Source of the DNA: Hyphomicrobiales bacterium
GTDB taxonomy: Bacteria; Pseudomonadota; Alphaproteobacteria; Rhizobiales; JAKPQE01
Reading direction: 5' to 3'
Assembly (NCBI GenBank): GCA_041397845.1
Contig: JAWKVW010000009.1
Span: forward strand, 26,906 to 90,905
Length of the DNA stretch: 64,000 nucleotides
Position 1 is the first letter of the stretch; every line of letters begins with the position of its first letter. The notes beneath the pieces were generated by a model. The model was given only the letters and a program-made list of their open reading frames with translations, was not told the DNA's origin and did not search any database. The translations under genes were made by a program, and so were the position numbers. Of this stretch, positions 3,905 through 62,999 are shown piece after piece.

Positions 3905-4034
3905 AAACGACATTATTTCAATGTTTTGATGTGCCCGCATGCGGATGGCGGGGGTTTGTTGCGGGAGCGGGGGCTTTCTGCGATAGTGCGCCCCCGAGCC
4001 GCCGACCCGGCAACGAGTTGAGGAGAGCGCGTAA

Positions 4035-5726: not shown

Positions 5727-7007
5727 ATGTTCGACATCAAGTGGATACGTGACAATCCGGAAGCGCTGGACAAGGCGCTGGCGAGCCGTGGCATGGCGCC
5801 GGCGTCGCCGCGACTCCTTGAGATGGACGAGGCGCGGCGGGCGCATGTGGCGCGGCTGCAGGAAGCCCAGGAGCGGCGCAACGCCGCCTCCAAGGAAATC
5901 GGCCAGGCCAAGGGCTCGGGCGACGAGGCGCGGGCGGCGGCTCTCATCGATGAAATCGCCAGCCTGAAGAGCTTCATCCAGAACGGCGAGGAAGAAGAGC
6001 GGCGGCTGACGGCGCTGCTCGACGACGATCTGGCGACGATCCCGAATGTGCCGCTCGACGAGGTTCCGTTCGGCGAGAGCGAGCACGACAATCCGGTGCA
6101 TCACGTCCACGGCGAGAAGCCGGTGTTCGATTTCGAGCCGAAGCAGCATTTCGAGATCGGCGAGGGTCTCGGGCTGATGGATTTCGAGGCGGCGGCCAAG
6201 CTGTCCGGCGCGCGATTCGTGGTGCTGAAGGGCCATCTTGCCCGGCTCGAGCGGGCGCTCGCCCAGTTCATGCTCGACCTGCACACGACCGAGCATGGCT
6301 ATACCGAAGTGGCGCCGCCTCTGATGGTGCGCGACGAGGTGATGTTCGGCACGGCGCAGCTTCCGAAATTCGCCGAGGACCAGTTCCGCACCATGGACGG
6401 GCGCTGGCTGATTCCGACGGCGGAAGTGCCGCTTACCAATCTCGTGCGCGAGAAGATCCTCGGCGAGGCCGAGCTGCCGATCCGGGTGACCGCCGGCACG
6501 CCGTGCTTCCGCCTCGAGGCGGGCTCGGCCGGGCGCGACACGCGCGGCATGCTGCGCCAGCACCAGTTCATGAAGGTCGAGATGGTGTCGATCACGACGC
6601 CGGACGGCTCACGGGCCGAGCTCGACCGGATGCGCGACTGCGCCGAGGAGGTGCTGAAGCGCCTCGGCATCCATTATCGGGTGGTGACGCTGTGCACCGG
6701 CGACATGGGCTTTGCCTCGCAGATGACCTACGACATCGAGGCATGGCTGCCGGGACAGAACACCTATCGCGAGATTTCGAGCTGCTCGGTCTGCGGCGAT
6801 TTCCAGGCCCGGCGCATGGGCACGCGCTTCCGCCCCGCCGAGGGCAAGGGCGTGCGCTACGTGCACACGCTGAACGGTTCGGGCATCGCGGTCGGCCGGG
6901 CGCTGATCGCGGTGATGGAGAACTACCAGAATGCCGACGGCTCGCTGACGGTGCCGGAGGCACTCAGGCCCTATCTCGGCGGCATCGAGCGGATCGGCGC
7001 GGCCTGA
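5727..7007 (+). CDS. serS: serine--tRNA ligase
   Basis: 426 aa. It has an N-terminal coiled-coil ([18 protein letters not shown]) and class II aaRS core motifs ([42 protein letters not shown]). Confidence 0.95.
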
Positions 7008-18160: not shown

Positions 18161-18275
18161 CGGCGGACTATGGCACGGACGGGCGGCGGCGGCGACCCGG
18201 CAGGCGGCCGGCCGGCGGGCTGCCCACAACATGATATGGTCGCGGCACGGGAGAGGCGAATCGCTGGACGGAGCC

Positions 18276-19564
18276 ATGCGGGAACCAATCGACTTGCTAC
18301 CTGCGCGACCGGGCCTTGCGGCGGCTTTCGCTGCTCTCGCCCCGATGCTGGTGATGCTGCTGGCAGCACTCATGGCACAGCCGGCGCTGGCCCTCGACAA
18401 GGCGGGCGTCGAGCGGCAGTTCCACGCCTGGATCGAGAGCGACGTCTGGCCGGCGGCGAAGAAGGCCGGCATTTCGCGCGCCACCTTCGCGGTCATGGAC
18501 GGAACGCAACTCGACTGGTCGCTGCCCGATCTCGTGCCGCCGGGGACAAAGCAGCCGGCGAGCGACATGCGGCAGTCGGAATTCGGCAGTCCGGGGCGCT
18601 ATTTCGACGAGAAAAAGCTGGCGCCGCTGATCAGCCTCGGGCGCGAGCGCCTTGCCAAATACAAGGACACGCTGGCGGCGGTGGAGAAGCGGTTCGGCGT
18701 GCCGGGGCCGATCGTCGTTGCCATCTGGGGCCGGGAATCAGGCTTTGGCCGGGTCAAGCTGCCGAACGAGGCGATCCGGTCGCTGGCGACGCTTGCCTTC
18801 ATGGGGGCGCGGCGCGAGGATTTCTTCGCCGAGCTGATCGCGGCGCTGAAAATCCTCGAGGCTGACCACATCACCGCCGACCGGCTGCATTCCTCCTGGG
18901 CCGGGGCGCTTGGCCAGCCGCAGTTCCTGCCCTCGAAATTCCTTGCCCATGCCATCGACTTCGACGGCGACGGGCGGCGTGACATCTGGGATTCGGTTCC
19001 CGATACGCTCGGCTCGATCGGCAACTACCCGGGTGGCAAAAGCACGGCTGGCAGGCGGGCCGCGACTGGGGTTTCGAGGCGGATGTGCCGGCGGCGGTTT
19101 CCTGCGCGCTCGAGGGGCCGGACAAGGGCCAGCCGATCGCGACCTGGGAAAAGGCCGGCGTTGCCCGCGTCGGCGGGCGGGAGTTTCCGGCAAGCGAGCG
19201 CGGACGGCAGGGGTTCCTCCTGATGCCGGCCGGCCGGTTTGGTCCGGCGTTCATCGCGACGGAGAATTTCTACGTGCTGAAGGCCTATAACGAGAGCGAT
19301 CTCTACGCGCTCTTCATCGGCCACCTTGCCGACCGGATGCGCGGCGGCAAGCCGTTCGCCGGGACCTGGGGCGAGGTCGACAAGCTCAACCGGCTGGCGG
19401 TGCGCCAGATGCAGGAACGGCTGGAAAAGCGCGGCGTCGACGTCGGCGGCGCCGACGGGCTCGTCGGTTTTCGCACCCGCGTCGCGGTCGGCGTCTGGCA
19501 GGCCGACAACGGCCTTTCGCCGACCTGCTATCCAGATTCAAGGCTGGTCGGCAAGGTGCGGTAA
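18276..19564 (+). pseudogene. lytic murein transglycosylase (MltB/SLT_2-like) with a C-terminal peptidoglycan-binding domain; reading frame broken near 19029-19034
   Basis: Signal peptide from the ATG at 18276. The catalytic region (AIWGRESGFG, WAGALGQPQFLPS) runs to ...SIGNY in one frame. The homologous continuation (GWQKHGWQAGRDWGFEADVPAAVSC... then ADGLVGFRTRVAVGVWQ) is in the -1 frame (ORF 19085..19564). The break is at a cccggg run. Confidence 0.75.
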
Positions 19565-44999: not shown

Positions 45000-45260
45000 T
45001 CACTGATCGCGGCGCTCAATCTGGTCCGGATCGGCGGTGATGGCCCGATAGATCTCGACGCGATCGCCTTCCTCGAGGGTGGCGTCGAGCTTCATGATGC
45101 GGCCGAAGACGCCGACCTTCTGGCGCTCCAGGTCGATATCGGGGAACTGCACCAGAATGCCGGAGCGCTCGATGGCCTCGTGCACCGTGCAGCCGTCCGG
45201 CATTTCCATTCGCAGCCACACCTTGTGCACCGGGGTGACGTAGGCGACGCCGATGTTCAT
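45000..45260 (-). CDS. rnfH: RnfH family protein
   Basis: 86 aa. The ubiquitin-like RnfH/UPF0125 pattern ends in EEGDRVEIYRAITADP. It is the last gene of the rnf operon. Confidence 0.85.
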   Translation of the reverse strand: MNIGVAYVTPVHKVWLRMEMPDGCTVHEAIERSGILVQFPDIDLERQKVGVFGRIMKLDATLEEGDRVEIYRAITADPDQIERRDQ

Positions 45261-45299
45261 GCGGGTGGTCTCCTGTGGCGGGATTTTCCCGGAAATGTC

Positions 45300-45995
45300 C
45301 TAGATCGTGATTTCCTTGCCGCCGCTCTCCACGGCTGCCGCGCCGCGGTTTTGCGTTGCGCGACGCCGCAGCTCATAGGCACGGCGGGCGGCGAGCAGCA
45401 GCGACAGCACGATGAAGCCGCCGGGCGGCAGGATCAGCAGCAAGACGCCCTTGTAGGACGGAATGACGGTCGTCTCGAGAACGCGGAAATGCTCGCCGAG
45501 CAGCAGCGAGGCGTTGGCAAAGAGCGTACCCGACCCGAGAATCTCGCGGATCGCACCGACGACGACGAGGGCGAAGGTGAAGCCAAGGCCCATCATCAGG
45601 CCGTCGAACATTGCCGGCAGCACGGGCGATTTCGAGGCAAAGCTCTCGGCCCGGCCGAGGATGACGCAGTTCGTGACGATGAGCGGGATGAAAAGGCCGA
45701 GCACCTTGTAGAGGTCATGCAGCCAGGCATTGATGGCGAGATCGACGATGGTCACGAGGATGGCGATGATCAGGACGAAGGCGGGGATGCGGATTTCCGG
45801 CTCGATCACCCGCCGCATGACGGCGATGAGGAAGCCGGAGGCGATGAGGACGGCCGTTGTCGCCAGCCCCATGCCGAGGCCGTTCGTTGCCGTTCCGGTC
45901 AGCGCGAGCAGCGGGCAAAGCGCGAGCATCTGCGAAAAGACGACATTGTTTGCCCAGAGGCCGTCGCGGGCAATCTGCCGATAACCGGTGCTCAT
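45300..45995 (-). CDS. rnfE: electron transport complex subunit RnfE
   Basis: Trimmed to the ATG at 45995 ([31 protein letters not shown]). Confidence 0.9.
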
Positions 45996-46690
45996 TTCTT
46001 TTCTCCCCCTGGCCGTGCGGTGAGTGTCGGGCGTTCGGCGTCGAAAAATTCGAGCCCCTCCCGCACGGCGGCAACGACGGCGCGCGGCGTGATGGTTGCT
46101 CCGGAAAACTGGTCGAAATGACCGCCGTCCTTCTTCACGCCCCACTTGTCCTTCGGCGGATTGCCGAAGGAAAGACCGGCAAAGCCGAGGATCCAGGGCC
46201 CTTTCGCTTCCTCGATCTTGTCGCCAAGGCCCGGCGTCTCGGCATGCTGCAACACCCGCACGCCGAGCAGGCTGCCGTCAGCGGCAACGCCCATCAGGAT
46301 GCGGATGGCGCCGCCATAGCCCTGGCCGGTGACCTCGTAGGCGACCGCCCTGACCTCGCCGCCGGAGAGGGCCGGGTAGATGGTGCGGCCGGTGCCGTCA
46401 GTCATGGCGATTGTGTACTGGTCGCGGACGGGGTCGTTGTCATGAACCGATGCCGGTACGACGAGGGCGAGCGATCCGAGCAGGTCTTCCTTCATCCGCT
46501 CGGCGATGGCGCCTTGCGTGGCATTGTGGCTTGAGGCGAGCAGGCCGGCGCCGCCGAGGGCGAAGGCGCCGAGCAGGGCCGCCAGATAGAGCGGCGAGCG
46601 CCCGCCCGCCCGGGACGTGCCGCCACCGGCCAGGCCGAGCCGGGCTTTCAGGCGGTCGAGAAACGAGGTGTCGCTGGCTGGCTTGTCCAT
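45992..46690 (-). CDS. rnfG: electron transport complex subunit RnfG
   Basis: 232 aa with an N-terminal anchor and an FMN-attachment region ([14 protein letters not shown]). 4-nt overlap with rnfE. Confidence 0.85.
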
Positions 46691-46699
46691 CGTCCGACC

Positions 46700-47773
46700 T
46701 CATTTCTCGTCATAGCGGATCGGCTCGCCCGAGCGCTTGCGCCCGTAGATGCGTGGCCGGATCGTGTGGTCGATGATGGGCACGGTCGCGTTCATCAGCA
46801 GCACGGCAAAGCCGATGCCTTCCGGATAGGCGGCGAAGGTGCGGATGACGAAGGTGAGGAGGGCGACACCGGCGCCGAAAAGGAGCTTGCCGGTGCCCGT
46901 TGCCGGCGCGGTGACGTAGTCCGTGACGATGAAGAAGGCGGCAAACAGGAACGTTCCGGAGAGGAGATGGGCTGCCGGGTCGAGGAAGCGCTGCGGGTCG
47001 ATGAGGTGAAACGTGCCCGAGAGCGCTGCCATCGTGGCGATCATGGCGACCGGGGCGTGCCAGGTGATGACCCGTGTCGCAAGCAGCAGGATGCCGCCGG
47101 CAACGAGCAGAACGGCCGATGTCTCGCCAAGCGATCCCGGCACCATGCCGACCGCGAGCGACAGGGTGTCGTGGCCGCCCTTGAGGATGTCGGAAAGGGC
47201 CAGCCCCTGACCGAGCTGGGTTTTCACCGAGCCGAGAACCGACGCGCTGGAAACCGCGTCGAAGTCTGGATGGCCGCTGAGAAAGATCGAAAAGCCTTCC
47301 GCAATGCCGGGTGAGCCGGCCGAGAACAACGGCCGCGGTTCGAGGAACTGGGTCATCTCGACCGGGAACGAGATCAGCAGGAAGATGCGGGCGATCATGG
47401 CCGGGTTGAAGACGTTCTGGCCGAGGCCGCCGAATGCCTGCTTGCCAAGGACGATGGCGACGAAAGCGCCAAGGACGCCGATCCACCATGGCGCCCAGGG
47501 CGGCAGGGTCATGGCGACGATCCAGCCGGTGAGGAGCGCCGAGCCGTCGAGCAGGAACGGCCGGACGGGCTTGCCGGCAACGCGCAGCGAGGCGGCCTCG
47601 AAGGCAATCGCGGCGGCGATCGTTGCCAGGAACAGAAACAGCGCCGGCCAGCCGAATGCATAGATGCCGAAGGCTGTCGCCGGCAGCAGCGCGACGACGA
47701 CGAGGCCCATGGTGCGGCCGATGCTGGCGCCGGAATGGGCGTGCGGCCCGCCGACAGGTCCTTTGGCGATCAT
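46700..47773 (-). CDS. rnfD: electron transport complex subunit RnfD
   Basis: Trimmed to the ATG at 47773 (MIAKGPVGGPHAHSGASIGRTMGLVVVALLPA). Polytopic. 4-nt overlap with the rnfC stop. Confidence 0.9.
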   Translation of the reverse strand: MIAKGPVGGPHAHSGASIGRTMGLVVVALLPATAFGIYAFGWPALFLFLATIAAAIAFEAASLRVAGKPVRPFLLDGSALLTGWIVAMTLPPWAPWWIGVLGAFVAIVLGKQAFGGLGQNVFNPAMIARIFLLISFPVEMTQFLEPRPLFSAGSPGIAEGFSIFLSGHPDFDAVSSASVLGSVKTQLGQGLALSDILKGGHDTLSLAVGMVPGSLGETSAVLLVAGGILLLATRVITWHAPVAMIATMAALSGTFHLIDPQRFLDPAAHLLSGTFLFAAFFIVTDYVTAPATGTGKLLFGAGVALLTFVIRTFAAYPEGIGFAVLLMNATVPIIDHTIRPRIYGRKRSGEPIRYDEK

Positions 47774-49257
47774 GCGTCCACCTGTGCCCTGGCGGCCGCG
47801 TCGGCCTGCCGTTTCTTGGCGTCGCGCTCGGCCTTCATGCGCGCCATGGCCTCTTCCTTGGCCTTGCGCTGCTGCTCCATCCTGTCGGTGCGAAGGCGGG
47901 CGAGGCGTTTGGTTTCTTCCTGCTTGTGCCTGGCGCGCTGCTGCGCGGTCAGCTTGCCCTTGGCGTAGTTGAAGTACTGGACGAGCGGGATGTTGGCCGG
48001 ACAGACCCAGGCGCAGGAGCCGCAGGCAATGCAGTCGAGAAGACCGATCTTCACCGCCCCGTCGAGTTCCTCCTTGCGGATGCGCGCCGCCATTTCGAGC
48101 GGGGTCAGCCCGCAGGGACAGGCACTGACGCAGGAGCCGCAGCGGATGCACGGCATTGCCGCCTCGCGCGGTGCCTCGTCGGCGCCGAGCGCGAGGATGC
48201 CGTTGATGCCCTTCACGATCGAGGCGCGGGTGCTCGACAGCGGCTGGCCCATCATCGGGCCACCGAGCAAGAGGCGCTTCGGTTCGCCGACGAAGCCGCC
48301 GCAATGCTCGATGAGGTGGGAGACCGGCGTGCCGATCGGCACCTCGAAATTGCCGGTGCGGGCCATCGCCCCGCCACTCACCGTGACGATGCGTGAAATC
48401 AGCGGCCGGCCGTGCCGCACGGCCTCATGCACGGCATAGGCGGTCGCGACATTGTGGACGACGATGCCGATATCGGCGGTCAGGGCGCGCGCCGGCGTCT
48501 CCTTGCCGGTCAGCGCCTGCACGAGGTGCTTTTCCGAGCCCATCGGATAGCGCGTCGGCACCTCGACGACGGCGACGTCGGCAAAGCCGCCGGCTGCAAC
48601 GGCGAGCCGCAGCGCGGCGAGGGCCTGCGGCTTGTTGGCCTCGACGGCGATGATCGCCCTTGCGACGCCGAGGCCATGGCGCATGATGCGGATGCCGTCG
48701 ACGACGTCGCCGGTGCGCTCGCGCATCAGCCGGTCGTCGCAGGTCAGATAGGGCTCGCACTCAGCCGCGTTGATGACCAGCGTCTCGAGCGTGTGGCGGT
48801 TGCGCAGGTTGAGCTTGACGGCTGACGGGAAGGTTGCCCCGCCCATGCCGACGATGCCGCTCGCGGCGACGCGCTCGGCAATTGCGGCGGGATCTACGGC
48901 GAAAGGATCGAGCGGGGCGGGGAGCTCGCCCCACTCGTCCCTTCCGTCCGGGCGCATGGTGATCGTCTGGCCGGGAAGACCCGACGCATGCGGCGCGATG
49001 AAACGCCCGATCGAGACGATGCGGCCGGACGTCGGGGCATGAACCGGCGCCGAGACCATGCCACGGCCGGTGGCAAGCAACTGGCCCTTCCTGACGACGT
49101 CGCCGCGATCGACGACGGCCACGGCCGGCGCGCCGATGTGCTGCTGCAGGGGAATGCGCAGGACGCTGGCCAGCGCCAGGCGCTCGATCGGCTTTTCGGC
49201 CGACAGCTCCTTGCGCTCGCTCGGGTGGATGCCGCCGCTGATGCGGAATAGCTTCAT
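47770..49257 (-). CDS. rnfC: electron transport complex subunit RnfC
   Basis: 495 aa with SGGIHPSERK, an NADH-binding region (GIVGMGGATFP) and two 4Fe-4S motifs (CIRCGSCVSACP, CIACGSCAWVCP). It has a Lys/Ala/Glu-rich tail. Confidence 0.9.
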   Translation of the reverse strand: MKLFRISGGIHPSERKELSAEKPIERLALASVLRIPLQQHIGAPAVAVVDRGDVVRKGQLLATGRGMVSAPVHAPTSGRIVSIGRFIAPHASGLPGQTITMRPDGRDEWGELPAPLDPFAVDPAAIAERVAASGIVGMGGATFPSAVKLNLRNRHTLETLVINAAECEPYLTCDDRLMRERTGDVVDGIRIMRHGLGVARAIIAVEANKPQALAALRLAVAAGGFADVAVVEVPTRYPMGSEKHLVQALTGKETPARALTADIGIVVHNVATAYAVHEAVRHGRPLISRIVTVSGGAMARTGNFEVPIGTPVSHLIEHCGGFVGEPKRLLLGGPMMGQPLSSTRASIVKGINGILALGADEAPREAAMPCIRCGSCVSACPCGLTPLEMAARIRKEELDGAVKIGLLDCIACGSCAWVCPANIPLVQYFNYAKGKLTAQQRARHKQEETKRLARLRTDRMEQQRKAKEEAMARMKAERDAKKRQADAAARAQVDA

Positions 49258-49275
49258 CGCTTCGTCCCTTCGCCG

Positions 49276-49812
49276 TCAGGCGGCAAGCCGGTTGGCCGGC
49301 TTCGGCCAATGCCAGGTCGTCAGGGTGTCGGTTTCCGGGCGCATCACGATCGCCCCGGTCGGGCAAACCTCGGCGCATTGCTCGCATCCGGTGCAGGCGT
49401 CGTCGACGACGCCGTGGATCTGCCGCGACGCGCCGACGATGGCGTCCGTCGGGCAGCGCTTCAGGCACTTGGTGCAGCCGATGCACAGGTCCTCGAAAAC
49501 GAAGGCGATGACAACGCCGCGGTCCTCCATGTCCGAGAGGTCGGAGGCGATGCCGAGCTTGTCGGCGAGGGCCGTCGCCAGCGCCTTGCCGCCGGGCGGG
49601 CAGAGCGATACCGGGGCCGCGCCTTCGGCGAGCGCCTCGGCCGCCGCCGAACAGCCCGGAAAGCCGCATTGGCCGCAATTGGTGCCGGGCATCATCTGCT
49701 CGATTTCAGCCGCGACCGGATTGCCCTCGACCCGCAGCAGCCGCGCCGCCAGGCCGAGGCCGCCGCCGAGGGCGACGCCCAGTCCCATCAGAATGCCCAT
49801 GGCCTCGATCAT
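49276..49812 (-). CDS. rnfB: electron transport complex subunit RnfB
   Basis: 178 aa with an N-terminal anchor, CGQCGFPGC, and ferredoxin motifs CIGCTKCLKRCP and CTGCEQCAEVCP. Confidence 0.9.
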   Translation of the reverse strand: MIEAMGILMGLGVALGGGLGLAARLLRVEGNPVAAEIEQMMPGTNCGQCGFPGCSAAAEALAEGAAPVSLCPPGGKALATALADKLGIASDLSDMEDRGVVIAFVFEDLCIGCTKCLKRCPTDAIVGASRQIHGVVDDACTGCEQCAEVCPTGAIVMRPETDTLTTWHWPKPANRLAA

Positions 49813-49833
49813 TGGCGTTCTCCCTGAAACCGG

Positions 49834-50415
49834 CTACTGGGCAACGAGCCCGGCAAAGCCCATGAAGGCGAGCGACAGGAACCCGGCCGTGAGGAAAGCG
49901 ATCGGCGCACCCGAGAAGGCCGCCGGTACGTCGGCGAGCCGCAGCCGTTCGCGCAGGCCGGCGAAAAGAACCATGACGAGAGTGAAGCCGGCGGCCGAAC
50001 CGAAGCCGTAGAGCATGCTCTCGGCGAGGTTGTGGTCTTCCTGCACGTTCAGGAGCGCGACGCCGAGCACGGCACAATTGGTGGTGATGAGCGGCAGATA
50101 GATGCCCAGCACCTGATGCAGCACCGGCGAGATCTTCTTGATCGCCAGCTCGGTGAACTGCACCACGGCGGCAATGACGAGAATGAAGGTCAGTATCCGC
50201 AGGTAGCCGAGCCCGAACGGCGCCAGCACCAGATGCTCGAGGATCCAGCCGGCCGTTGCCGCAACGGTCAGCACAAACGTCGTCGCAAAGCCCATTCCGA
50301 CGGCGGCTGACAGTTTCTTGGACACGCCCATGAACGGGCAAAGGCCAAGGAACTTGACCAGCACCACGTTGTTCACCAGCGCCGTCCCGAGCAGGATGAT
50401 GAGATAATGTTCCAT
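49834..50415 (-). CDS. rnfA: electron transport complex subunit RnfA
   Basis: Trimmed to the ATG at 50415 ([34 protein letters not shown]). Confidence 0.9.
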
Positions 50416-50461: not shown

Positions 50462-50476
50462 GCATTAACCGTGCCA
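50462..50476 (-). promoter_or_regulatory. candidate sigma-54 (-24/-12) promoter of the rnf operon
   Basis: The reverse complement reads TGGCAC-GGTTA-ATGC (GG-N10-GC). It lies about 47 nt upstream of the rnfA ATG. Confidence 0.55.
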
Positions 50477-50546: not shown

Positions 50547-50562
50547 TGTCCGCGATCCGACA
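50547..50562. promoter_or_regulatory. NifA-type upstream activator sequence TGT-N10-ACA
   Basis: The sequence is tgtccgcgatccgaca, in the rnfA-nifL intergenic region. Confidence 0.5.
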
Positions 50563-50587: not shown

Positions 50588-50603
50588 TGTCGGGAAGCCG
50601 ACA
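50588..50603. promoter_or_regulatory. NifA-type upstream activator sequence TGT-N10-ACA
   Basis: The sequence is tgtcgggaagccgaca, in the rnfA-nifL intergenic region. Confidence 0.5.
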
Positions 50604-50659: not shown

Positions 50660-50674
50660 AGGCATGGTTTTTGC
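50660..50674 (+). promoter_or_regulatory. candidate sigma-54 (-24/-12) promoter of nifLA
   Basis: aGGCAT-ggttt-TTGC with correct GG-N10-GC spacing, about 40 nt upstream of the nifL ATG. Confidence 0.4.
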
Positions 50675-50714: not shown

Positions 50715-52361
50715 ATGACAGAGCGGAACGCAGGCGACGACAGGCGAAGCGCGACCGAAGCGCTTGCTGCGGTGCTCACGTCCTTGCCGGAAGACCTGCC
50801 GCCGGAGATCCGCAGCATCTTCGGCGCGGCGCTGACGCCGCACGATCATCACCTGCCGCCGCGGCTCTACCAGGAAGCGGTGGAGGCAATGTCGGTCGCG
50901 GTCTCGATCACCGATCGCGACGCCAAGATCCTCTATGTCAATCCGGCCTTCGAGCGGCTGACGGGATATGCCTCCGAGGACATCGTCGGCCAGAACGAAA
51001 GCGTTCTTTCGAACAAGCGGACGCCGCGCTCCGTCTATCTGGAGCTCTGGGAAACGATCAGGGGCGGCAATGTCTGGCAGGGCCGCCTCATCAACCGCAA
51101 GCGCGGCGGCGAACTCTACCTCGCCGAGCTGTCGATCGTCCCGGTGAAGAACCGCGCCGGCGCCATCGGCTATTTTCTCGGCATGCACCGCGACATCACC
51201 GAGATGCACCACCTGCAGCGCAAGGTGGAGAACCAGAAGAACCTCATCCTGAGCATCCTCGACGGTGCGCCGGTGGCGATCGTCCTCATCGACCTGAAGG
51301 GCGTCGTGCTCGTCGCCAATCGCGCCTACCGACGCCTTGCCGCGGACATGAAGGACGTCGAGCCGGCGAGCTATTTCGTCGAGATGCTGCGCCCGCAGCT
51401 CGGCGACGATCTCGTCGATGCCAGCGCCGAGGAGAGGACGCTTGCCGGCGCCGAGGTGCGCTGGCCGCAGGGCGGCGGCTCCGGCGGGCGGTGGTTCTCC
51501 TGTTCGACGCAGTGGGTGCGCGAGTTCGAGCTGTCGGCGGACACCTATTTCGAGACCCGGGTGCAGGACGCGATGCTGCTGGTCATCAGCGAAATCACCG
51601 GCCTGAAGCGGCAGTACGAGCAGACGCGGTTCCTTGCCGTTCGGGCGCAGATGGCCGATCTGGAAATGCGCCTGACGACCCGCGAGATGATCGACGGCGC
51701 GCTCTACCAGCTTCAGGGGCCGCTCAACATCATCCAGGCTATGGCCGGCATGCTGCAGCGGCGCGAGGGCGAGGACGCCCGTTTCGGCCATGCCGTCGAC
51801 GAGGCGCTGTCGTCCGGCAATCGCGCCGTCGAGCGCCTGCGCGTCTCGCTGCCGCCGTTTTCGCGCGAGGTCATGTCGCCGGTAAATCTCAATCAGGTGA
51901 TCCGCGACGTGCTGGTGCTGACCGCCGACCGCCTCTCGGCCAACGGCATCGTTGTCGACTGGCAGCCGGATCGCGAGCTGCCGTCGGTGTTCGGCCAGGA
52001 AAACCTGCTGCGGATTCTTCTGAAGGTGCTTGTCGACAACGCGATTACCGCGGTCGGCGAGCCGGGATCGCGGAGCCGCGAAGTGCGGGTGGCGACCCGC
52101 GCCGACGACGAGGTCATCGAGCTCTGGGTGCGTGACGGCGGCCCGGGCATCGAACGGTCGATCCGCTCCAAGGTTTTCGAGCCGTTCTTTTCGGCCTGGT
52201 CGCGCAGTCCGCGCTCGGCCGGCATGGGCCTTGCGATTGCCCAGCAGATCCTGACCGAGCTCGGCGGCGACATTCACATCGACACGGCGCCGTCGGAGGG
52301 CGGCGGGATGTGCGTCTGGCTGCCCGCTTGCCGGCCGCACAAGGGGGAGCCGCAGGCATGA
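50715..52361 (+). CDS. nifL: nitrogen fixation regulatory flavoprotein NifL (PAS-PAS-H-GHKL)
   Basis: 548 aa. PAS1 reads [49 protein letters not shown]...[41 protein letters not shown]. This closely parallels the Azotobacter vinelandii NifL sequence as I remember it. The C-terminus is GHKL-type (VRDGGPGI...GMGLAIAQ). The stop overlaps the nifA start (ATGA). Confidence 0.85.
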
Positions 52362-53989
52362 ACGATATCCCCGAGAATTTCGGCGGCAGCCGCATCTGTC
52401 CGAGACCGGTTTTCTGCGCCTTCTACAAGCAGGAGCTGGAGACGCTTTATCAGGTCAGCCGCGTGCTTGGCCGCTCGCTCGACCTGCAGCAGACGACGCA
52501 TGACGTGCTGGAGCTGCTGCACGAGGAGGGGCTGCTGCACCACGGCATGATCTGCCTGCTCGACAACGAGACCGGCGAGCTGAATGCGATCGATGTCCAT
52601 GGCGGGGCCGGAACGCCGGGCACGCATTACCGGTCCGGGGAGGGCATTGTTGGCGCTGTTCTGGCCGCCCGCGACCGCATCATCGTGCCGCGCATCGCCG
52701 ACGAGCCGCGCTTTCTCGGCCGCCTCGGGGTCTATGATCCGGAGCTGCCGTTCATCGGCGTGCCGATTTTCTATGGCGCCGACGAGACGCTCGGCGTTCT
52801 GGCCGCCCAGCCGGCCGCCGGCGATCGCTTCCTTGAGGATCATGCCAAGCTGATGGAGATGATCGCCTCGCTCATCGCCCAGACGCTGCATCTGTCAAAG
52901 TCGATCGAGCAGGAGCAATCGCAGCTTCGCTCGGAACGGGACCGCCTTCGCCGGCACGTCAAGCAGCAGCACGGCTTCGACCGCATCGTCGGCGATACGC
53001 CCGCCATGCGGATGGTCTTCGATCAGGTCCGTGTCGTTGCCAAGTGGAACACGACGGTGCTCATTCGCGGCGAGTCCGGCACGGGCAAGGAACTCATCGC
53101 CAATGCGATCCACTACAATTCGCCGCGCTCGAGCGCCCCGTTCCTGAAGCTCAACTGTGCCGCCCTGCCGGACAACCTGCTCGAATCGGAGCTTTTCGGT
53201 CACGAGAAGGGGGCATTCACCGGCGCTGCCAGCATGCGCAAGGGCCGCTTCGAGCAGGCCGACGGCGGCACGCTCTTCCTCGACGAGATCGGCGAAATTT
53301 CCCCGGCGTTCCAGTCGAAGCTGCTGCGCGTGCTGCAGGAAGGCGAGTTCGAGCGCGTCGGCGGCAACCGGACGCTGAAGGTCGACGTGCGCATCATCGC
53401 GGCGACCAACAAGGATCTGGAGGCGGCGGTCGAGACCGGCACCTTCCGCGAGGACCTCTACTACCGGCTCAACGTCATGGCGATCAACATGCCGGCGCTG
53501 CGCGAGCGCATCGACGATATTCCGGAGCTGGCGCGCTTCCTCGTTGGCCAGGTGGCGGCAAAGCAGGGGCGCGACCTCATCCTGACCGACAGCGCCGTGC
53601 GCCTGCTGATGCGGCACACCTGGCCGGGCAATGTGCGGGAGCTCGCCAACTGCGTCGAGCGCGCCGCGATCATGAGCCTGGACGGGACGATCGACCGCGA
53701 TGCCGTCGTTGCCTCGGGTATCCAGGACAAGGCTGCGGGAACGGCGCCGCCGCGGCCGTTCGCCCAACCTGCGCCAAAGCCCGTGCCGCCGGCCGAGGCG
53801 GTGCAGCCAAGGCCCGCCGTGCCGGCGCGCACTGTGCCGGAATCAGAGGCCGACGAGCGCGAGCGGATCATCGCCGCGCTCGAGGAGGCCGGCTGGGTGC
53901 AGGCGAAGGCCGCCCGGCTGCTCGACATGACGCCGCGACAGATCGCCTACCGGGTCAAGATCCTCGACATCAAGATGCGCCGCATCTGA
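52358..53989 (+). CDS. nifA: nif-specific sigma-54-dependent transcriptional activator NifA
   Basis: ATG at 52358. It has a GAF domain and an AAA+ domain ([31 protein letters not shown]). The C-terminal HTH is [26 protein letters not shown]. Confidence 0.95.
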
Positions 53990-54070: not shown

Positions 54071-54086
54071 TGTCACGAACAGCACA
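54071..54086. promoter_or_regulatory. NifA UAS TGT-N10-ACA upstream of nifB
   Basis: The sequence is tgtcacgaacagcaca. Confidence 0.55.
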
Positions 54087-54104
54087 ATGCCGCGCTGCCG
54101 CAAT

Positions 54105-54120
54105 TGTCGGGTTTGCCACA
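54105..54120. promoter_or_regulatory. NifA UAS TGT-N10-ACA upstream of nifB
   Basis: The sequence is tgtcgggtttgccaca. An AT-rich tract (aatactattcaaaaacaatcatatat) separates it from the -24/-12 element. Confidence 0.6.
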
Positions 54121-54185
54121 GCGAAGTGCCGATGGCGGTCCGGAAATACTATTCAAAAACAATCATATATCCCTTCCGGCCGGCT

Positions 54186-54200
54186 TGGCATGGCGGTTGC
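54186..54200 (+). promoter_or_regulatory. sigma-54 promoter of nifB
   Basis: TGGCAT-ggcgg-TTGC, about 68 nt upstream of the nifB ATG. Confidence 0.7.
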
Positions 54201-54267: not shown

Positions 54268-55740
54268 ATGGAACTGAAGGTTCTTGGACCGGCCAAGCCG
54301 TCCGCCGGCGGGTGTTCGAAGAGTGCATGCGGCTCGACCGCCGACCAGATGAGCCATCTGCCGGAAGCGATCCGCGAGCGGGTGAAGAACCATCCCTGCT
54401 ATTCCGAAGAGGCGCACCACCATTATGCCCGCATGCATGTCGCCGTCGCGCCGGCCTGCAACATCCAGTGCAACTACTGCAATCGCAAATACGACTGCGC
54501 CAACGAGAGCCGGCCGGGCGTCGTCTCCGAACTGCTGACGCCGGATCAGGCGGTCCGCAAGACGCTGGCGGTTGCCGCCGCCATCCCGCAGATGTCGGTG
54601 CTCGGCATTGCCGGCCCCGGCGATCCGCTGGCAAATCCGTCCCGCACCTTCGAGACCTTCCGCCAGCTTTCCGACAAGGCGCCGGACATCAAGCTCTGCG
54701 TGTCGACCAACGGCCTTTCCCTGCCCGAACATGTCGACGAACTCGTTCGCCACAACATCGACCACGTCACGATCACCATCAACTGCGTCGACCCCGAGGT
54801 CGGCGCCCGCATCTATCCGTGGATCTTCTGGAAAAACCGGCGCATCCGCGGCCGCAAGGCAGCCGAGATCCTGATCGAGCAGCAGCAGCGCGGCCTGGAA
54901 ATGCTGGTCGCGCGCGGCGTGCTGGTGAAGGTCAATTCGGTCCTCATTCCGGGCGTCAACGACGACCACCTCGTCGAGGTGAGCCGTGTCGTCAAGGCCA
55001 AGGGCGCGTTCCTGCACAACGTCATGCCGCTCATCGCCGAGGCCGAACACGGAACGTACTACGGCGTCATGGGCCAGCGCGGACCGACCCAGGCCGAACT
55101 GACGGCGCTGCAGGATTCCTGCGGCGACATGAACATGATGCGCCACTGCCGGCAGTGCCGGGCCGACGCCGTCGGTCTTCTCGGCGAGGATCGCGGCCAG
55201 GAATTCACCATGGACAAGATCGACGTCATGGAGATCGACTACGCCGCCGCGATGGAAAGGCGGGCGACGATCCATGCCGCCATCGAGGCGGCGAGGGACG
55301 AGGAGCGCACTGCTGCCGCGCCGGCGCCGGTCGCCGCGCTGCCGGCGGACGCGCGTCTGGTGCTGATGGCGGTCGCCAGTGCCGGGCAGGGTGTCGTCAA
55401 CCAGCATTTCGGTCATGCCCGGGAGTTCCTCATCTACGAGGCCGGGCCGTCGGGCGTGCGCTTCGTCGGCCATCGCAAGACAGACCAGTACTGCGTCGGC
55501 AGTTCGACCTGCGGCGACACCGAGACGGCGCTCGAGCGGACGATCCGCGCCCTTGCCGGCTGCGAGGTCGTGCTCTGTTCCAAGATCGGCATCGAACCGT
55601 GGGGGGCGCTGGAAGCCGCCGGCATCCAGCCGAACGGCGAGCACGCGATGGAACCGATCGAGGCGGCCGTTGCCGCAGTCTATCGCGAGATGGCCGAGGC
55701 CGGCGCGCTCGTCACCGACAGCCTTGCGCAAAGCGCCTGA
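54268..55740 (+). CDS. nifB: nitrogenase FeMo-cofactor biosynthesis radical SAM protein NifB (with NifX-like C-terminal domain)
   Basis: The listed 898-aa ORF was trimmed to the ATG at 54268. Motifs: HPCYSEEAHHHYARMHVAVAPACNIQCNYCNRKYDCANESRPG. The C-terminal domain is NifX/NafY-like (LMAVASAGQGVVNQHFGHAREFLIYE). Confidence 0.95.
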   Translation: MELKVLGPAKPSAGGCSKSACGSTADQMSHLPEAIRERVKNHPCYSEEAHHHYARMHVAVAPACNIQCNYCNRKYDCANESRPGVVSELLTPDQAVRKTLAVAAAIPQMSVLGIAGPGDPLANPSRTFETFRQLSDKAPDIKLCVSTNGLSLPEHVDELVRHNIDHVTITINCVDPEVGARIYPWIFWKNRRIRGRKAAEILIEQQQRGLEMLVARGVLVKVNSVLIPGVNDDHLVEVSRVVKAKGAFLHNVMPLIAEAEHGTYYGVMGQRGPTQAELTALQDSCGDMNMMRHCRQCRADAVGLLGEDRGQEFTMDKIDVMEIDYAAAMERRATIHAAIEAARDEERTAAAPAPVAALPADARLVLMAVASAGQGVVNQHFGHAREFLIYEAGPSGVRFVGHRKTDQYCVGSSTCGDTETALERTIRALAGCEVVLCSKIGIEPWGALEAAGIQPNGEHAMEPIEAAVAAVYREMAEAGALVTDSLAQSA

Positions 55741-56036: not shown

Positions 56037-57647
<1,611 letters not shown>

Positions 57648-58059: not shown

Positions 58060-58649
58060 CCGGACCGGGCGCCGGCCTTGCCGCTGGCGGCCTCACCCTC
58101 CATCAGGCGCTCCAGCAGCGCCTGATGCGGATGGGGCGCGGCGGGCTCAACGAGGTGTTCGTCGCCCAGATGCTGGCAAGCTGGATGGCGGGGCGCGGTG
58201 TCCTGCCATCGGCCATGGGGCTTGACCCGAGCCTATTCCGGCAGATGCTCGACTGGCACTTTCCGGGCATCGGCCCATTCGACGACCGGCGGGCGGGCGT
58301 TGCGGCGCTGCCCCGTCCCGATGAACTCGACGACGTGCGCATGCTGCTCGACAGCCACCGCGCCGGCCGGTCGATTTCGGAACTCTGGATGACGGAAATC
58401 GTCGCCCTCGGCTGCATGGGCGGCGATCACCTCTGGTCGGATCTCGGGCTGTTCTCGCGCGATCAGTTGAGTGCCCTGATGATGCTGAATTTCCCGACGC
58501 TTGCCGCCGCCAACAGCCGCAACATGAAATGGAAGCGGTTCCTCTACAAGCAGCTCTGCGAGGCCGAAGGGGTTCATGCCTGCCGGGCGCCGAGCTGCGA
58601 GGCCTGCGCCGACTATGGCAACTGCTTCGTGCCGGCCGAGGCCGAATAG
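58056..58649 (+). CDS. nifQ: nitrogen fixation protein NifQ
   Basis: C-terminal Cx4Cx2Cx5C motif (CRAPSCEACADYGNC) and LWSDLGL...NMKWKRFLY. The GTG at 58056 overlaps the upstream stop (alternative ATG at 58125). Confidence 0.85.
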   Translation: MTGPGAGLAAGGLTLHQALQQRLMRMGRGGLNEVFVAQMLASWMAGRGVLPSAMGLDPSLFRQMLDWHFPGIGPFDDRRAGVAALPRPDELDDVRMLLDSHRAGRSISELWMTEIVALGCMGGDHLWSDLGLFSRDQLSALMMLNFPTLAAANSRNMKWKRFLYKQLCEAEGVHACRAPSCEACADYGNCFVPAEAE

Positions 58650-59713
58650 GCGGCTGGCGGCACCGTTGCCGCACCGGCGACGACCATCCTGTGGTCCTTG
58701 CCGTCCTCGATGCGCAGCCGCGACTTCATCGTGGCCGTGAGATAGAGGGTACCGGCTCCATCGACGAGCACCACATCGGTGACGCCCATGCGGGCGGCGA
58801 CGGCCGGCCACTCGCCGGGGCCTGCCACCGACAGCGCCGTTGCCGCGCCATCGGCCAATGCGCCATCCCGATGAATGACGCTCGCCGAGACGATGTCACG
58901 GACCGGCCAGCCGGTGCGCGGGTCGAGGATGTGCGAATAGACGATGCCGTCGTGCTCGAGAAACCGATTGTAGTTGCCCGACGTGTGCAGCGCTTCGCCG
59001 GGGGCAAGCTCGACCGAGGCGATGACGCCCCAGCCGCGCGGATCGCGGATCGCGACCCGCCAGGGCCGCGCGCCATGCCGGCCGATCACCTTGACGCCGC
59101 CGCCGGCATTGATGACGGCGTCGACTATGCCGGCCGACGCCAGCTCACCGGCGGCCCAGTCGAGCGCCGCGCCCTTGGCGAACCCGCCGAAATCAAGCTG
59201 AACGGCGGGATTGCGCGATGATGCCACCGCGCCCTCGACCCGGACGTCGGCCATCGACGGGGCGCCGGCAACGAGCGCGGCGATTTTGCCGGCGTCCGGC
59301 GGCGGGCCCTGCGGCAGGTCGTCGGCATGAAAGCCCCAAAGGCCGATGAGGCTGCCGATGGCGGGATTGAACAGTCCGCCGCTCGTCTCCTCGAGGTGTC
59401 TTGCCGTTTCGATCGCGTCGGCAAGGAGCGGCGAGACCGCCATCGACCGGCCTTCGGCGAAGGCCGCGTTGAGGTCGGTCATCTCGCCGGGCTTCCAGGC
59501 GTTCCAGTCGCGCTGCATGCGGCCGAAGCCTTCGGCGATGCCGGCGAGGGCCGGCGCGGCTCGCTCGCGGTCCTTTTCGGCAATGACGATCTCGGTCAGC
59601 GTGCCGAAGACGTAAAGCGTGGTGCGATATTCCCCGGCATCCGGCTCGCAGGCGGCAAACAGAACCGCGCTCGCCAGCAGAAGAATGGAGCGGACGCCGG
59701 CCCGCATGGTCAT
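58613..59713 (-). CDS. apbE: ApbE-family FAD:protein FMN transferase (RnfF-like lipoprotein)
   Basis: Trimmed to the ATG at 59713. It has a lipobox (LLLASAVLFAAC) and the motifs GLFNPAIGSL, DFGGFAKGAALD, LHTSGNY and HILDPRTGWP. Confidence 0.85.
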   Translation of the reverse strand: MTMRAGVRSILLLASAVLFAACEPDAGEYRTTLYVFGTLTEIVIAEKDRERAAPALAGIAEGFGRMQRDWNAWKPGEMTDLNAAFAEGRSMAVSPLLADAIETARHLEETSGGLFNPAIGSLIGLWGFHADDLPQGPPPDAGKIAALVAGAPSMADVRVEGAVASSRNPAVQLDFGGFAKGAALDWAAGELASAGIVDAVINAGGGVKVIGRHGARPWRVAIRDPRGWGVIASVELAPGEALHTSGNYNRFLEHDGIVYSHILDPRTGWPVRDIVSASVIHRDGALADGAATALSVAGPGEWPAVAARMGVTDVVLVDGAGTLYLTATMKSRLRIEDGKDHRMVVAGAATVPPAAYSASAGTKQLP

Positions 59714-60189
59714 TCGACGTCGCAGCCGGATGCGGGGGCCGGGCCAATGAGAACCGGCGCAAGGCCCCGGGCGAGGCCGGACGAGCGGACGACGAGGTAG
59801 CCGCCGCAAAGGCCGGCGACAGCGGCAAGGCCGACGCCGACCTCGGCGGTGCCAAGGCCGGCCGCGATCGCGGCCATGACGACCATGGCCGCTGCCGGAA
59901 TGAGGTAGGCAATTGCCGCGCCGGCGACGATCGAACTCTCGCGAATGCCGAGAACCACCCTCGTGCCGACCGGAAAGTCGCGGTCGGTCGCGACCCGCAG
60001 CGTTGCCGGCGCGCTGGAGACGAGCCGCGACAAGGTCGCCGTGCCGCAGCTCGAAGCGATGCCGCAAGTGGCGCAGCCGGCGGTCCGGTGCGGCAAGAGA
60101 AGAAGGAACCGGCCGTCGCGCGCGAGCACGGTCGCTTCCGCCTCGACGAGGTCGGCGAGGTCAGGCGCGAGGGGAGATTCGACGGTCAT
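59710..60189 (-). CDS. RseC/MucC-family protein
   Basis: 159 aa with an N-terminal Cys-containing beta domain (HRTAGCATCGIASSCG) and two C-terminal TM helices. It has 4-nt overlaps on both sides. Confidence 0.7.
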   Translation of the reverse strand: MTVESPLAPDLADLVEAEATVLARDGRFLLLLPHRTAGCATCGIASSCGTATLSRLVSSAPATLRVATDRDFPVGTRVVLGIRESSIVAGAAIAYLIPAAAMVVMAAIAAGLGTAEVGVGLAAVAGLCGGYLVVRSSGLARGLAPVLIGPAPASGCDVE

Positions 60190-60587
60190 GACGTGGCCCC
60201 TTTCGCTTTCAGGTGCGCGGCGAGCGCGCTGTCCATGGTCGCTGCGTGGAGATCGAACCAGCGCGGCAGTTCGCGCACATATTCGCGCCCAAAGGCGAGG
60301 AAGCCGCGCTCGACCCGGTTGCCGATCTGGCGCATCTGGCCGAGCACGCGATCATGCTCGCTGCGATGCTCGCCAAGCGCGGGAAAGCCGCTTTCGACCA
60401 TCAGCTCGTCCTCGAAGGCAAAATGCGCGACGGTATGGGCGCCGAGTTCGGCAAAGAGCGCCCGGAACGCGGCGCTGTCGGGCGCTGCGTCGAGCCGGTT
60501 CACGAGGTCGGCGAATTCGCGATGCATCTCATCCATCGCCGCGACATCGAGCCGGTGCCGATCGTCGTTCCAGACGAGCAGGGTCAT
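60186..60587 (-). CDS. hemerythrin-like metal-binding protein
   Basis: 133 aa with the H...HxxxE...HxxxH...HxxxxD ligand pattern (HREF, HFAFEDE, HRSEHDRV, LHAATMD). Confidence 0.8.
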   Translation of the reverse strand: MTLLVWNDDRHRLDVAAMDEMHREFADLVNRLDAAPDSAAFRALFAELGAHTVAHFAFEDELMVESGFPALGEHRSEHDRVLGQMRQIGNRVERGFLAFGREYVRELPRWFDLHAATMDSALAAHLKAKGATS

Positions 60588-60826
60588 CGGGCAAGGTCCG
60601 GCGTCAGCGTCTGGATGCGGGCGCGGCGGCCGCGGCGGACGGCAGCGAGGTCGACGATTTTCGCCGTCGGCGAGGCCGACCAGCCCGCCGCGTTGCCGGG
60701 CGGCAGCGCGTTTTCGCGCCGTTTGCCGCCGTGCAGCCAGGGCGGCGTCGCAAGGTTCCGCGATGCCGGGGCAGGGCAGGTGGTCGATCGGATTTTCCGT
60801 TCCGTCTCGGTCGGGTGTTGCGGCAT
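60584..60826 (-). CDS. small hypothetical protein (80 aa)
   Basis: The ATG at 60826 is preceded by aggaga at the right spacing. The stop forms an ATGA overlap with the hemerythrin start. Third codon positions are overwhelmingly G/C. No family recognised. Confidence 0.4.
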   Translation of the reverse strand: MPQHPTETERKIRSTTCPAPASRNLATPPWLHGGKRRENALPPGNAAGWSASPTAKIVDLAAVRRGRRARIQTLTPDLAR

Positions 60827-60857
60827 GGGGAGCCTCTCCTGCAACAGGACGTTTCGG

Positions 60858-61706
60858 TCAGGCGGCAACGGGCGCGTTTGCGACAGCCTCGAGGAAGCCG
60901 GCAACATCCATCCGGATGACCTCGATCCGCTTTTTCTTCAGGAACCGCATTTCCTTCTCGGTCGGCTCGGGGATCAGCGCCCAGCCGGCCGGCTCGCCGG
61001 CATCGTGGATGATGTCGGACATGACCATGCGCTCGGTGTCGCGGTTGAACCGCATGCCGAGGAAGAGATAGCGCTTGCCGACGCGGCCGGACTTGAGGAA
61101 CGAGGGCATGCCGAAGCCGCCCATCAGCTCGGTGATGTAGTCGACGTAGTCCGCGTCCGAGGCGATGAACAGCGGCTCGGGAACGGGGGAGCCGGCCGGC
61201 TTGAAGAGGACGGGCAGGTTCGTGTCGGCCTGCTCGAGGCTGACGCCGCGATAGGCCGTGCCGTCATGCTGTGAAAGAACGAAGCGATAGTCAGTGCCGC
61301 CGATGCGGGCGACACCGCGCACCAGGAGGTGCGGCACCGTCGCATAGCTCTCCTGAAGCTGCGTGTCGCGATTGACGTCGATGACATAGGCCGGGCGCAC
61401 GGTTGCCAGCCAGTCGTGCAGCGGCGCCCGTGTCCACTTCGTCTCGCCATAGGTCTTGGTCAGGAACTGGTCGATGAAGCGGCGGCCGCGCTTCGGGTTC
61501 ATGGCGGCGCGCGGGAACTCGAACATCAGCTTGGGCGCCATCGGCCGACCGCCGTTCATGGCCAGGATGAGGCTGTCGCTGTCCGCCGGTATCGGCGCGC
61601 CCGTCGCCTTGTCGTGTGCGCCGGCGAGCGCTCCCGGCCCGAGATAGGGAACGACGTTGCCGGCGCGTAGGCCGGCGACGATATCGGCGGAGTCGATTGG
61701 CTGCAT
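60858..61706 (-). CDS. SIR2-like domain protein (SIR2_2-type)
   Basis: 282 aa. VVPYLGPGAL resembles the GAGxS motif and HDWLATVRPAYVIDVNRDTQLQESY resembles the TTNYDxLxE motif. A later block reads LFIASDADYVDYITEL...RYLFLGMRFNRD. The assignment is from memory of PF13289 and has not been searched. Confidence 0.6.
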   Translation of the reverse strand: MQPIDSADIVAGLRAGNVVPYLGPGALAGAHDKATGAPIPADSDSLILAMNGGRPMAPKLMFEFPRAAMNPKRGRRFIDQFLTKTYGETKWTRAPLHDWLATVRPAYVIDVNRDTQLQESYATVPHLLVRGVARIGGTDYRFVLSQHDGTAYRGVSLEQADTNLPVLFKPAGSPVPEPLFIASDADYVDYITELMGGFGMPSFLKSGRVGKRYLFLGMRFNRDTERMVMSDIIHDAGEPAGWALIPEPTEKEMRFLKKKRIEVIRMDVAGFLEAVANAPVAA

Positions 61707-61896: not shown

Positions 61897-61912
61897 TGTC
61901 GGCAAACCGACA
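61897..61912. promoter_or_regulatory. NifA UAS TGT-N10-ACA between the SIR2-like operon and nifH
   Basis: The sequence is tgtcggcaaaccgaca. A near-copy of the nifB UAS, tgtcgggtttgctgca (TGT-N10-GCA), is at 61836..61851. Confidence 0.6.
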
Positions 61913-61991
61913 ATGCACCCCTGGAATTGTTGGCGACGCCACCAGAGATGCGCAAGTCCGACAACCGGAAGAGGTCAAACAAATCGTGTAA

Positions 61992-62999
<1,008 letters not shown>

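Follow-up and report, generated by a model that had tools for sequence, protein, structure and literature searches.

In Azotobacter vinelandii, a NifL fragment spanning residues 269-519 (DH and GHKL domains) and NifA's AAA+ domain suffice to form the inhibitory complex, and mutagenesis has defined contacts at E298, R323 and E488 of NifL and at K230, P257, R258, E356, E360, E366 and N373 of NifA (PMC12998190); NifL as a whole follows a PAS1-PAS2-DH-GHKL scheme in which PAS1 carries flavin adenine dinucleotide (FAD) (PMC10372690). Accounts of NifL in Alphaproteobacteria vary, from its absence in an older study (PMC4999443), through its lack in 'the majority' of them (PMC12727197), to Martelella endophytica being singled out as the one alphaproteobacterium with NifL (PMC11773926), its NifL-NifA pair having served as the alphaproteobacterial representative (PMC8219145). 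The Nif proteins of Rhodobiaceae, Rhizobiaceae, Cohaesibacteraceae and BM303-family Rhizobiales were reported in 2024 to cluster with those of gammaproteobacteria by horizontal transfer (PMC11208148), and the nitrogenases of Martelella and Cohaesibacter were likewise placed in the gammaproteobacterial cluster (PMC8399215). Here, we analyzed a nifL-nifA pair found in a 64,000-nucleotide stretch of a Hyphomicrobiales contig (JAWKVW010000009.1), hereafter the window. A preliminary description of this DNA had presented the pair as an exception to the established view of NifL-NifA distribution. That framing is outdated, since both alphaproteobacterial NifL-NifA pairs and the transfer of gamma-type nif genes have been published (PMC8219145, PMC11773926, PMC12727197, PMC11208148), and the documented cases make the window pair a further instance of a known pattern. 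The molecular reading given in that description proved right on every testable point, and its novelty was overstated.

The upstream gene, nifL (50715-52361, plus strand), is preceded by a GGAGG Shine-Dalgarno sequence 7 nt from its ATG and encodes a 548-residue protein comprising an N-terminal extension, a FAD-type PAS1, a probable PAS2, DH and GHKL domains. The NCBIfam NifL equivalog model TIGR02938 matched this protein with 533.4 bits (cut-off 242.45 bits) over profile positions 1-490 of 494, and full-length A. vinelandii NifL (9qq6_A) aligned end to end with residues 44-537 (374 bits). PAS1 (50853-51209, plus strand; residues 47-165, with Pfam PAS/PAS_9 at residues 51-165) aligned over its whole length with the A. 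vinelandii PAS1 structure 2gj3 (122 bits), and the motifs NESVLSN, TPRSVY, LW, YLAEL and LGMHRD were all found, bearing out the proposal of a NifL-type anti-activator with the flavin PAS signature. Among the 46 aligned NifLs in which PAS1 is covered, 34 keep E95, the equivalent of A. vinelandii E70, and homology argues for flavin binding by this domain. The GHKL domain (51996-52322, plus strand; HATPase_c, Pfam PF02518, residues 428-536) has intact N, G1, F and G2 boxes, with N442, D474, G476, G478, G503 and G505 conserved. At the position of the H-box histidine, H305 in A. vinelandii, the window protein carries Y331 (codon 51705-51707, plus strand), ALYQLQGP aligning with AIHRLQGP; only 8 of 48 aligned NifLs have a histidine there. 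Relative to the closest metagenome-assembled genome (MAG), the ratio of nonsynonymous to synonymous substitution rates (dN/dS) was 0.21 for nifL and 0.19 for the PAS1 region (residues 1-170), indicating purifying selection. As a side observation, the N-terminal part (residues 1-46, 50715-50852) is longer than in A. vinelandii NifL by about 25 residues and carries the motif L(T/K)SLPEDLPPE, in which P25 and P29 are invariant; the motif also occurs in Beggiatoa alba NifL and in two homologues outside the clade (P0014, P0016). Neither the window NifL nor the Martelella NifA matched a record in exact-sequence look-ups.

The downstream gene, nifA (52358-53989, plus strand), encodes a protein of 543 residues in which Pfam identified GAF (41-178), AAA+ sigma54 activator (Sigma54_activat, 210-453), AAA_lid_14 and HTH_8 (500-534) domains, and no receiver domain. 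It scored 682.8 bits with the NifA equivalog model TIGR01817 (cut-off 528.85 bits), A. vinelandii NifA (9qq6_C, 'Nif-specific regulatory protein') aligned with residues 22-543 (612 bits), and its dN/dS against the closest MAG was 0.12, again indicating purifying selection, compared with 0.10 for the housekeeping gene serS. A GGGGGAG sequence lies 8 nt upstream of the start codon. The nifL stop and nifA start overlap in an ATGA read directly at 52358-52361 (plus strand): positions 52350-52365 are ccgcaggcATGAacgat, in which the nifL TGA (52359-52361) shares bases with the nifA ATG (52358-52360). The overlap announced in the preliminary description is thus exact in its coordinates, and the junction is backed by an independent short-read metagenome contig from another sample (run X3), which covers 51546-52570 without a gap. 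Overlaps of the 4-nt or 1-nt class were found in 42 of 85 nifLA loci.

We compared the cysteines of the window NifA with those of annotated NifAs from rhizobial symbiosis plasmids (Rhizobium, Sinorhizobium) and of Paraburkholderia NifA. All of these have the four cysteines of the C-X11-C-X19-C-X4-C motif in the same alignment; in the rhizobial proteins C-X11-C ends the AAA+ domain and C-X4-C lies in an extended linker. In the window protein, C432 (codon 53651-53653, plus strand; within NVRELANC) is the only linker cysteine and the sole remnant of this motif, the other three being absent, and the linker is short, as in Serratia/Klebsiella-type and Chromatiaceae NifAs. The description of this NifA as lacking the rhizobial cysteine motif therefore stands, with the caveat that the protein has a conserved cysteine pair of its own, C14 and C20 (CPRPVFC, 52397-52417, plus strand, located by comparison of homologues). 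This C-P-x-P-x-[FY]-C pair, placed directly before the GAF domain, is invariant in the window NifA and its 20 closest homologues (21/21), which form a Hyphomicrobiales clade of NifAs with 65-100% identity. It was found in none of the gamma- and betaproteobacterial NifAs examined, and the NifA of Varunaivibrio has only its second cysteine.

We then carried the contact positions defined in A. vinelandii over to the window proteins through alignments. All seven NifA contacts are kept (K229, P256, R257, E355, E359, E365 and N372), whereas the positions of K229, E359 and E365 hold other residues in the NifAs of Rhizobium, Sinorhizobium and Paraburkholderia. On the NifL side, E298 and R323 are kept as E324 and R349.

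The pair is embedded in a larger block. Divergent from nifLA lies an rnfABCDGEH operon (45000-50415, minus strand), recognized by NCBIfam matches to RnfH, RnfE and RnfG and by the RnfA, RnfB and RnfC translations, so that the order reads rnfHEGDCBA on the minus strand, then nifL, nifA, nifB, fdx, a flavodiiron gene, two fer2 genes and nifQ; nifB (54268-55740, plus strand; 490 residues) was identified by tblastn against annotated nifB genes. NifB is 91% identical to that of the closest MAG, 71-74% to Thiodiazotropha/Sedimenticolaceae proteins (Thiodiazotropha, 74%) and 52-58% to annotated rhizobial nifB products (tblastn), while RnfC and NifA are 64% and 59-61% identical, respectively, to their Thiodiazotropha/Sedimenticolaceae homologues. 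All three proteins are nearer to gammaproteobacterial than to rhizobial homologues; identity between the window NifA and rhizobial NifA in this comparison was about 40-42%. A bootstrapped neighbor-joining tree of 46 NifLs with midpoint rooting, which is not of a kind to fix the direction or number of transfers, placed the window NifL in a Hyphomicrobiales clade (99% support) with a 'Kaistiaceae' MAG, Rhodobium and Martelella. This clade is nested in an alphaproteobacteria-rich clade (93%) with Filomicrobium/Hyphomicrobiaceae and Varunaivibrio, itself sister (94%) to Thiodiazotropha and gammaproteobacterial symbionts of Solemya. These data agree with the earlier proposal that the oxygen and nitrogen sensing logic was imported along with the structural genes, NifL-NifA having travelled with a gamma-type rnf/nif cluster.

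The core order is shared by Cohaesibacter marisflavi (locus L175) and Varunaivibrio sulfuroxidans (L176), in which the rnf operon is followed by nifL, nifA, nifB, fdx, nifQ, a SIR2-like gene, nifH and nifD; the flavodiiron, hemerythrin and draT/draG genes differ between these two blocks. NCBI annotates NifL in Kaistiaceae, Rhodobium and Martelella; it names the homologues with 83%, 62% and 62% identity NifL, and the NifAs of this clade NifA. NifL turned up in at least six Hyphomicrobiales genomes in two pattern-limited scans of GTDB species representatives, and look-ups of proteins and contigs extended the carriers to Martelella and Varunaivibrio. A NifL common in this lineage was an outcome that the preliminary description had named as overturning its reading, and this is largely what we found: every examined relative with this cluster type has either NifL or a PAS-less derivative of it.

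The host is a member of the Hyphomicrobiales, as judged from SerS. The window carries serS (5727-7007), an alphaproteobacterial host marker, and polA (15173-18568). Its SerS is 95% identical to that of MAG JPNA_maxbin.170, which also has the closest NifL (83%), and 59-72% (mostly 63-72%) identical to the other proteins listed, nearly all from Hyphomicrobiales; the Rhizobiales-like host proposed earlier is thus upheld. Across the window, the GC content is 0.60-0.71 and that of third codon positions (GC3) about 0.8-0.9, and synonymous divergence (dS) from the closest MAG is similar for nifL (0.51), nifA (0.57) and serS (0.35). A search of the window for signs of a recent island detected no tRNA genes and no break in GC or GC3. 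The uniform composition and the similar dS of nif genes and serS indicate that the block is not a recent arrival. Several studies have yielded metagenomes of wastewater, sludge and bioreactors that contain near-identical sequence.

To describe how the pair might be expressed, we located promoter elements and predicted binding sites for NifA. A putative sigma54-type -24/-12 element, AGGCATGGTTTTTGC (50660-50674, plus strand), precedes the nifL ATG by about 55 nt, and no sigma70-like site was found upstream of nifL. A TGTC-N8-GACA search predicted two NifA upstream activating sequences (UAS), TGTCCGCGATCCGACA (50547-50562) and TGTCGGGAAGCCGACA (50588-50603), 41 bp apart and shared with the putative sigma54 promoter of the divergent rnfA operon, TGGCACGGTTAATGC (50462-50476, minus strand; one mismatch). 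The window holds four TGTC-N8-GACA sites against 0.53 expected; the fourth, TGTCCTGAAAACGACA (3897-3912), is distant from the nif genes, where an open reading frame (3128-3904) ends, and may be due to chance. The nifB control region (54071-54200, plus strand) comprises UAS at 54071-54086 and 54105-54120 and a sigma54 promoter, TGGCATGGCGGTTGC, at 54186-54200, and that of nifH (61897-62036, plus strand) a UAS, TGTCGGCAAACCGACA, at 61897-61912 and a perfect sigma54 promoter, TGGCACAGCCTTTGC, at 62022-62036. Each of the sigma54-type elements of nifL, rnfA, nifB and nifH is preceded by TGT-N10-ACA sites. An additional sigma54-like sequence, GGCATGGGCCTTGC, occurs at 52221-52234, inside the 3' end of nifL and some 125 nt ahead of the nifA start codon; since the codons for the conserved GMGLA of the G2 box lie at the same place, it may be a by-product of coding.

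Six alphaproteobacterial loci were compared for this layout: the window, the closest MAG, Rhodobium orientis, Varunaivibrio, an uncultured Rhodobium (L139) and Cohaesibacter. The nifL sigma54-type element occupies the same position in five and is located further upstream in the sixth. The full intergenic set, an rnfA promoter, two UAS and a nifL promoter, is present in four (window, closest MAG, Rhodobium orientis and Varunaivibrio). The UAS pair is spaced by 41 bp in four loci and by 40 bp in Varunaivibrio, Cohaesibacter having a single UAS, and the rnfA promoter, present in five of the six, was not found in the searched stretch of the uncultured Rhodobium locus. Sigma54 and UAS-like elements also precede nifL in several gamma- and betaproteobacterial relatives, indicating that the promoter/UAS layout came with the module; an alphaproteobacteria-specific rewiring of the nifL promoter and UAS was dropped as a candidate, since the same layout is found in these relatives. 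Together, the sigma54 and UAS sites point to autoregulation of nifLA by NifA.

The reading that we favor, with a probability of about 0.85, is that the window carries a canonical Azotobacter-type NifL-NifA pair within a gamma-type rnf/nif block that forms part of the chromosome of an uncultured wastewater and sludge bacterium of the Hyphomicrobiales. In the mechanism that we propose, nifL and nifA would be co-transcribed from the sigma54-type promoter, the two NifA UAS shared with the divergent rnf promoter allowing positive autoregulation, and the ATGA overlap would couple their translation and yield NifL and NifA in near-stoichiometric amounts. NifA, through its GAF-AAA+-HTH architecture, would activate the sigma54 promoters of nifH, nifB and rnfA. 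Upon oxidation of the PAS1 FAD, or upon a fixed-nitrogen signal relayed by a PII protein, NifL carrying ADP in its GHKL domain would use its DH and GHKL domains to bind the AAA+ domain of NifA and thereby prevent the NifA hexamer from forming, acting without kinase activity. Responsiveness to oxygen and nitrogen, interaction with PII and autoregulation are all predicted here by homology.

Several observations weigh against this interpretation. One of the three NifL contacts is not conserved, E488 being replaced by Q511. Pfam found just PAS1 and HATPase_c in the window NifL and left PAS2 undetected, the presence of PAS2 being deduced from the end-to-end alignment with 9qq6. A search of the window for a PII gene (glnB or glnK) found none, so that the nitrogen input is a predicted one. 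The assembly probably contains indel errors, as explained below for the flavodiiron gene, which calls for caution on single-base details, the nifL/nifA junction itself being independently confirmed. Finally, metatranscriptome contigs from one study match nifA at 52790-53010 (one mismatch) and nifL at 51683-51875 (eight mismatches), but constitute weak evidence of expression, because these are contigs and carry-over of DNA is possible.

We weighed three other explanations. The least probable, which we give hardly any credence, is that the PAS-GHKL protein works as an active FixL/NtrB-type sensor histidine kinase, which would control nif genes by phosphotransfer instead of binding NifA stoichiometrically. 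Its kinase-like layout of DH and HATPase_c with intact ATP-binding boxes and its weak matches to many kinase models would fit such a role, but the sequence already contradicts it: a tyrosine, not a histidine, occupies the phospho-acceptor position, and the protein scores 73 bits with the FixL model (cut-off 850), compared with 533 bits with the NifL model (cut-off 242). Moreover, no receiver-domain protein adjoins nifL, its neighboring partner NifA having a GAF and no receiver domain, and the tree places the protein among NifLs. A grouping with FixL/NtrB kinases, which the preliminary description had raised as the outcome that would overturn its assignment, is thus not what we observed, and the protein is a NifL, set apart from active kinases of that type by Y331 and the low FixL score. 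Almost as improbable is a chimera of assembly or binning that linked a gamma-type nifLA to alphaproteobacterial housekeeping genes, the true host being a gammaproteobacterium. The assembly is of metagenome type and has indel errors, and nifL and serS are on separate contigs of the closest MAG; in the window, however, serS, polA and nifLA share one 64-kb stretch of uniform GC and GC3, nif genes and serS show similar dS against that MAG, the same block occurs in the isolates Martelella endophytica, Rhodobium orientis, R. gokarnense and Cohaesibacter marisflavi, and the literature reports the same pattern (PMC11208148).

The last alternative, unlikely but less remote than the other two, is that NifL is present while control by oxygen or redox state is exerted partly or wholly by the CPxPx[FY]C pair of NifA, leaving NifL mainly as a sensor of nitrogen or energy. 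It bears on a second group of genes, found between rnfA and nifA in four relatives (Cohaesibacter marisflavi, Cohaesibacter sp. CAU 1516 and two metagenomic contigs), which encode a short NifL of 268-292 residues with HATPase_c only (L175, 8145-8975; L179, 2099-2977; L180, 2186-2992; L181, 2144-2974). Apart from the short gene, which does not overlap nifA, the gene order at these loci is the same; the intergenic region has a normal length (about 300 nt), and C. marisflavi, the one locus examined, keeps both promoters and one UAS. The short protein aligns with residues 298-539 of the window NifL, keeps the equivalents of E298 and R323, and spans approximately the minimal NifA-binding fragment defined experimentally (NifL 269-519). 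Control of redox response through NifA would account for the possible loss of the NifL PAS domains in these relatives, and this scenario is favored by the invariance of the pair in 21/21 clade NifAs despite variable flanking N-termini, by its absence from gamma- and betaproteobacterial NifAs, and by the ability of NifL 269-519 alone to bind NifA in A. vinelandii (PMC12998190). On the other hand, the window PAS1 is complete, evolves with a dN/dS of 0.19 and keeps the E70 equivalent, and two cysteines do not by themselves define a metal or redox site. It is therefore only as a speculative scenario of low probability that we propose that the clade NifA may have acquired its own redox or metal input through CPxPx[FY]C, independent of the NifL flavin, so that Cohaesibacter and its allies could delete both PAS domains while keeping the NifA-binding DH-GHKL core, the window representing an intermediate with both sensors.

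Other genes of the block were recorded along the way. The flavodiiron gene (Lactamase_B and flavodoxin domains; 56037-57295) shows three frame changes, near 56094, 56130 and 56245. At these positions, contigs from two other samples have an extra CT, A and G, respectively, which restores a frame of 420 codons; a flavodiiron pseudogene was therefore rejected, and indel errors in the window assembly are the probable cause. Downstream of nifQ come apbE-like, rseC-like, hemerythrin and SIR2-like genes on the minus strand, followed by nifH and nifD. This nifQ-nifH interval (58613-61706, minus strand) encodes an ApbE-like flavin transferase and an RseC/MucC-like small membrane protein, both judged by eye from their translations, as well as the hemerythrin (60186-60587) and a SIR2_2-domain protein (60858-61706). 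The presence of the SIR2-like gene at the same place in Cohaesibacter and Varunaivibrio marks it as a conserved nif-associated gene. In Varunaivibrio sulfuroxidans (Rhodospirillales; L176, 13650-16932), draG and draT lie beside nifH within the nifLA block, so that NifL-NifA and control by ADP-ribosylation are combined in this organism; neither draT nor draG was seen in the equivalent part of the window.

Taken together, these results leave the picture of nif regulation unchanged and add one more uncultured Hyphomicrobiales bacterium with a gamma-type nif/rnf block and a NifL-NifA switch to the alphaproteobacteria documented as carriers of both. Their practical value is an additional natural NifL-NifA pair, in an alphaproteobacterial background, for ongoing comparative and engineering work. 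The less ordinary points are the CPxPx[FY]C pair of the clade NifAs and the PAS-less short NifLs of Cohaesibacter-type relatives, which might reveal how the set of sensors in the module changes once it has been transferred.

How does the locus compare with the systems described so far? The oxygen-sensitive NifAs of Rhizobium and Sinorhizobium, which belong to the same bacterial order as the window host, and that of Paraburkholderia are members of the same GAF-AAA+-HTH family of sigma54 activators. The rhizobial type is, however, only 40-44% identical to the window NifA, which has neither the linker insertion nor three of the four cysteines, and rhizobial nifA has no nifL upstream and sits in a fixABCX-nifA-nifB context. 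The Klebsiella type, exemplified by the plasmid-borne nifLA of Serratia proteamaculans (L171), shares with the window the position of nifL upstream of nifA, the ATGA overlap, a NifA without the cysteine motif and the anti-activator logic. Its NifL is 29% identical to that of the window, its GHKL domain is degenerate (H, V and E at the N, G1 and G2 positions) and no rnf operon adjoins it, unlike in the window.

The A. vinelandii system (9qq6, 2gj3) is more similar, with the same domain architecture in both proteins and the same rnfABCDGEH<>nifL-nifA-nifB-fdx order (divergent rnf1, with nifB-fdxN downstream). The two pairs have in common all NifA contacts and two of the three NifL contacts, intact GHKL boxes and a NifA without the rhizobial-type cysteine motif, for about 40% identity between the NifLs. 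In the window NifL, the non-essential H305 is replaced by tyrosine and R306 and E488 by glutamine, the N-terminus is extended by the SLPEDLPPE-containing segment, and NifA has the extra N-terminal CX5C pair. Upstream of nifL, the window has a sigma54-type promoter and predicted NifA UAS, whereas A. vinelandii nifLA is described as constitutively expressed.

The closest counterparts are found in Martelella endophytica YC6887, Rhodobium orientis and the 'Kaistiaceae'/Hyphomicrobiales MAGs, which fall in the same 99% NifL clade, with NifLs 62-83% and NifAs 73-88% identical to those of the window. The N-terminal cysteine pair is present in the NifAs of all these members, as in the window. The intergenic layout was compared for the closest MAG and Rhodobium orientis, in which all four elements match, and for the uncultured Rhodobium, in which the rnfA promoter was not found. 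The window represents a different species, its SerS sharing 95% identity with that of the nearest MAG and about 70% with those of other families, and its occurrence in wastewater and sludge metagenomes sets it apart from its marine or plant-associated isolated relatives.

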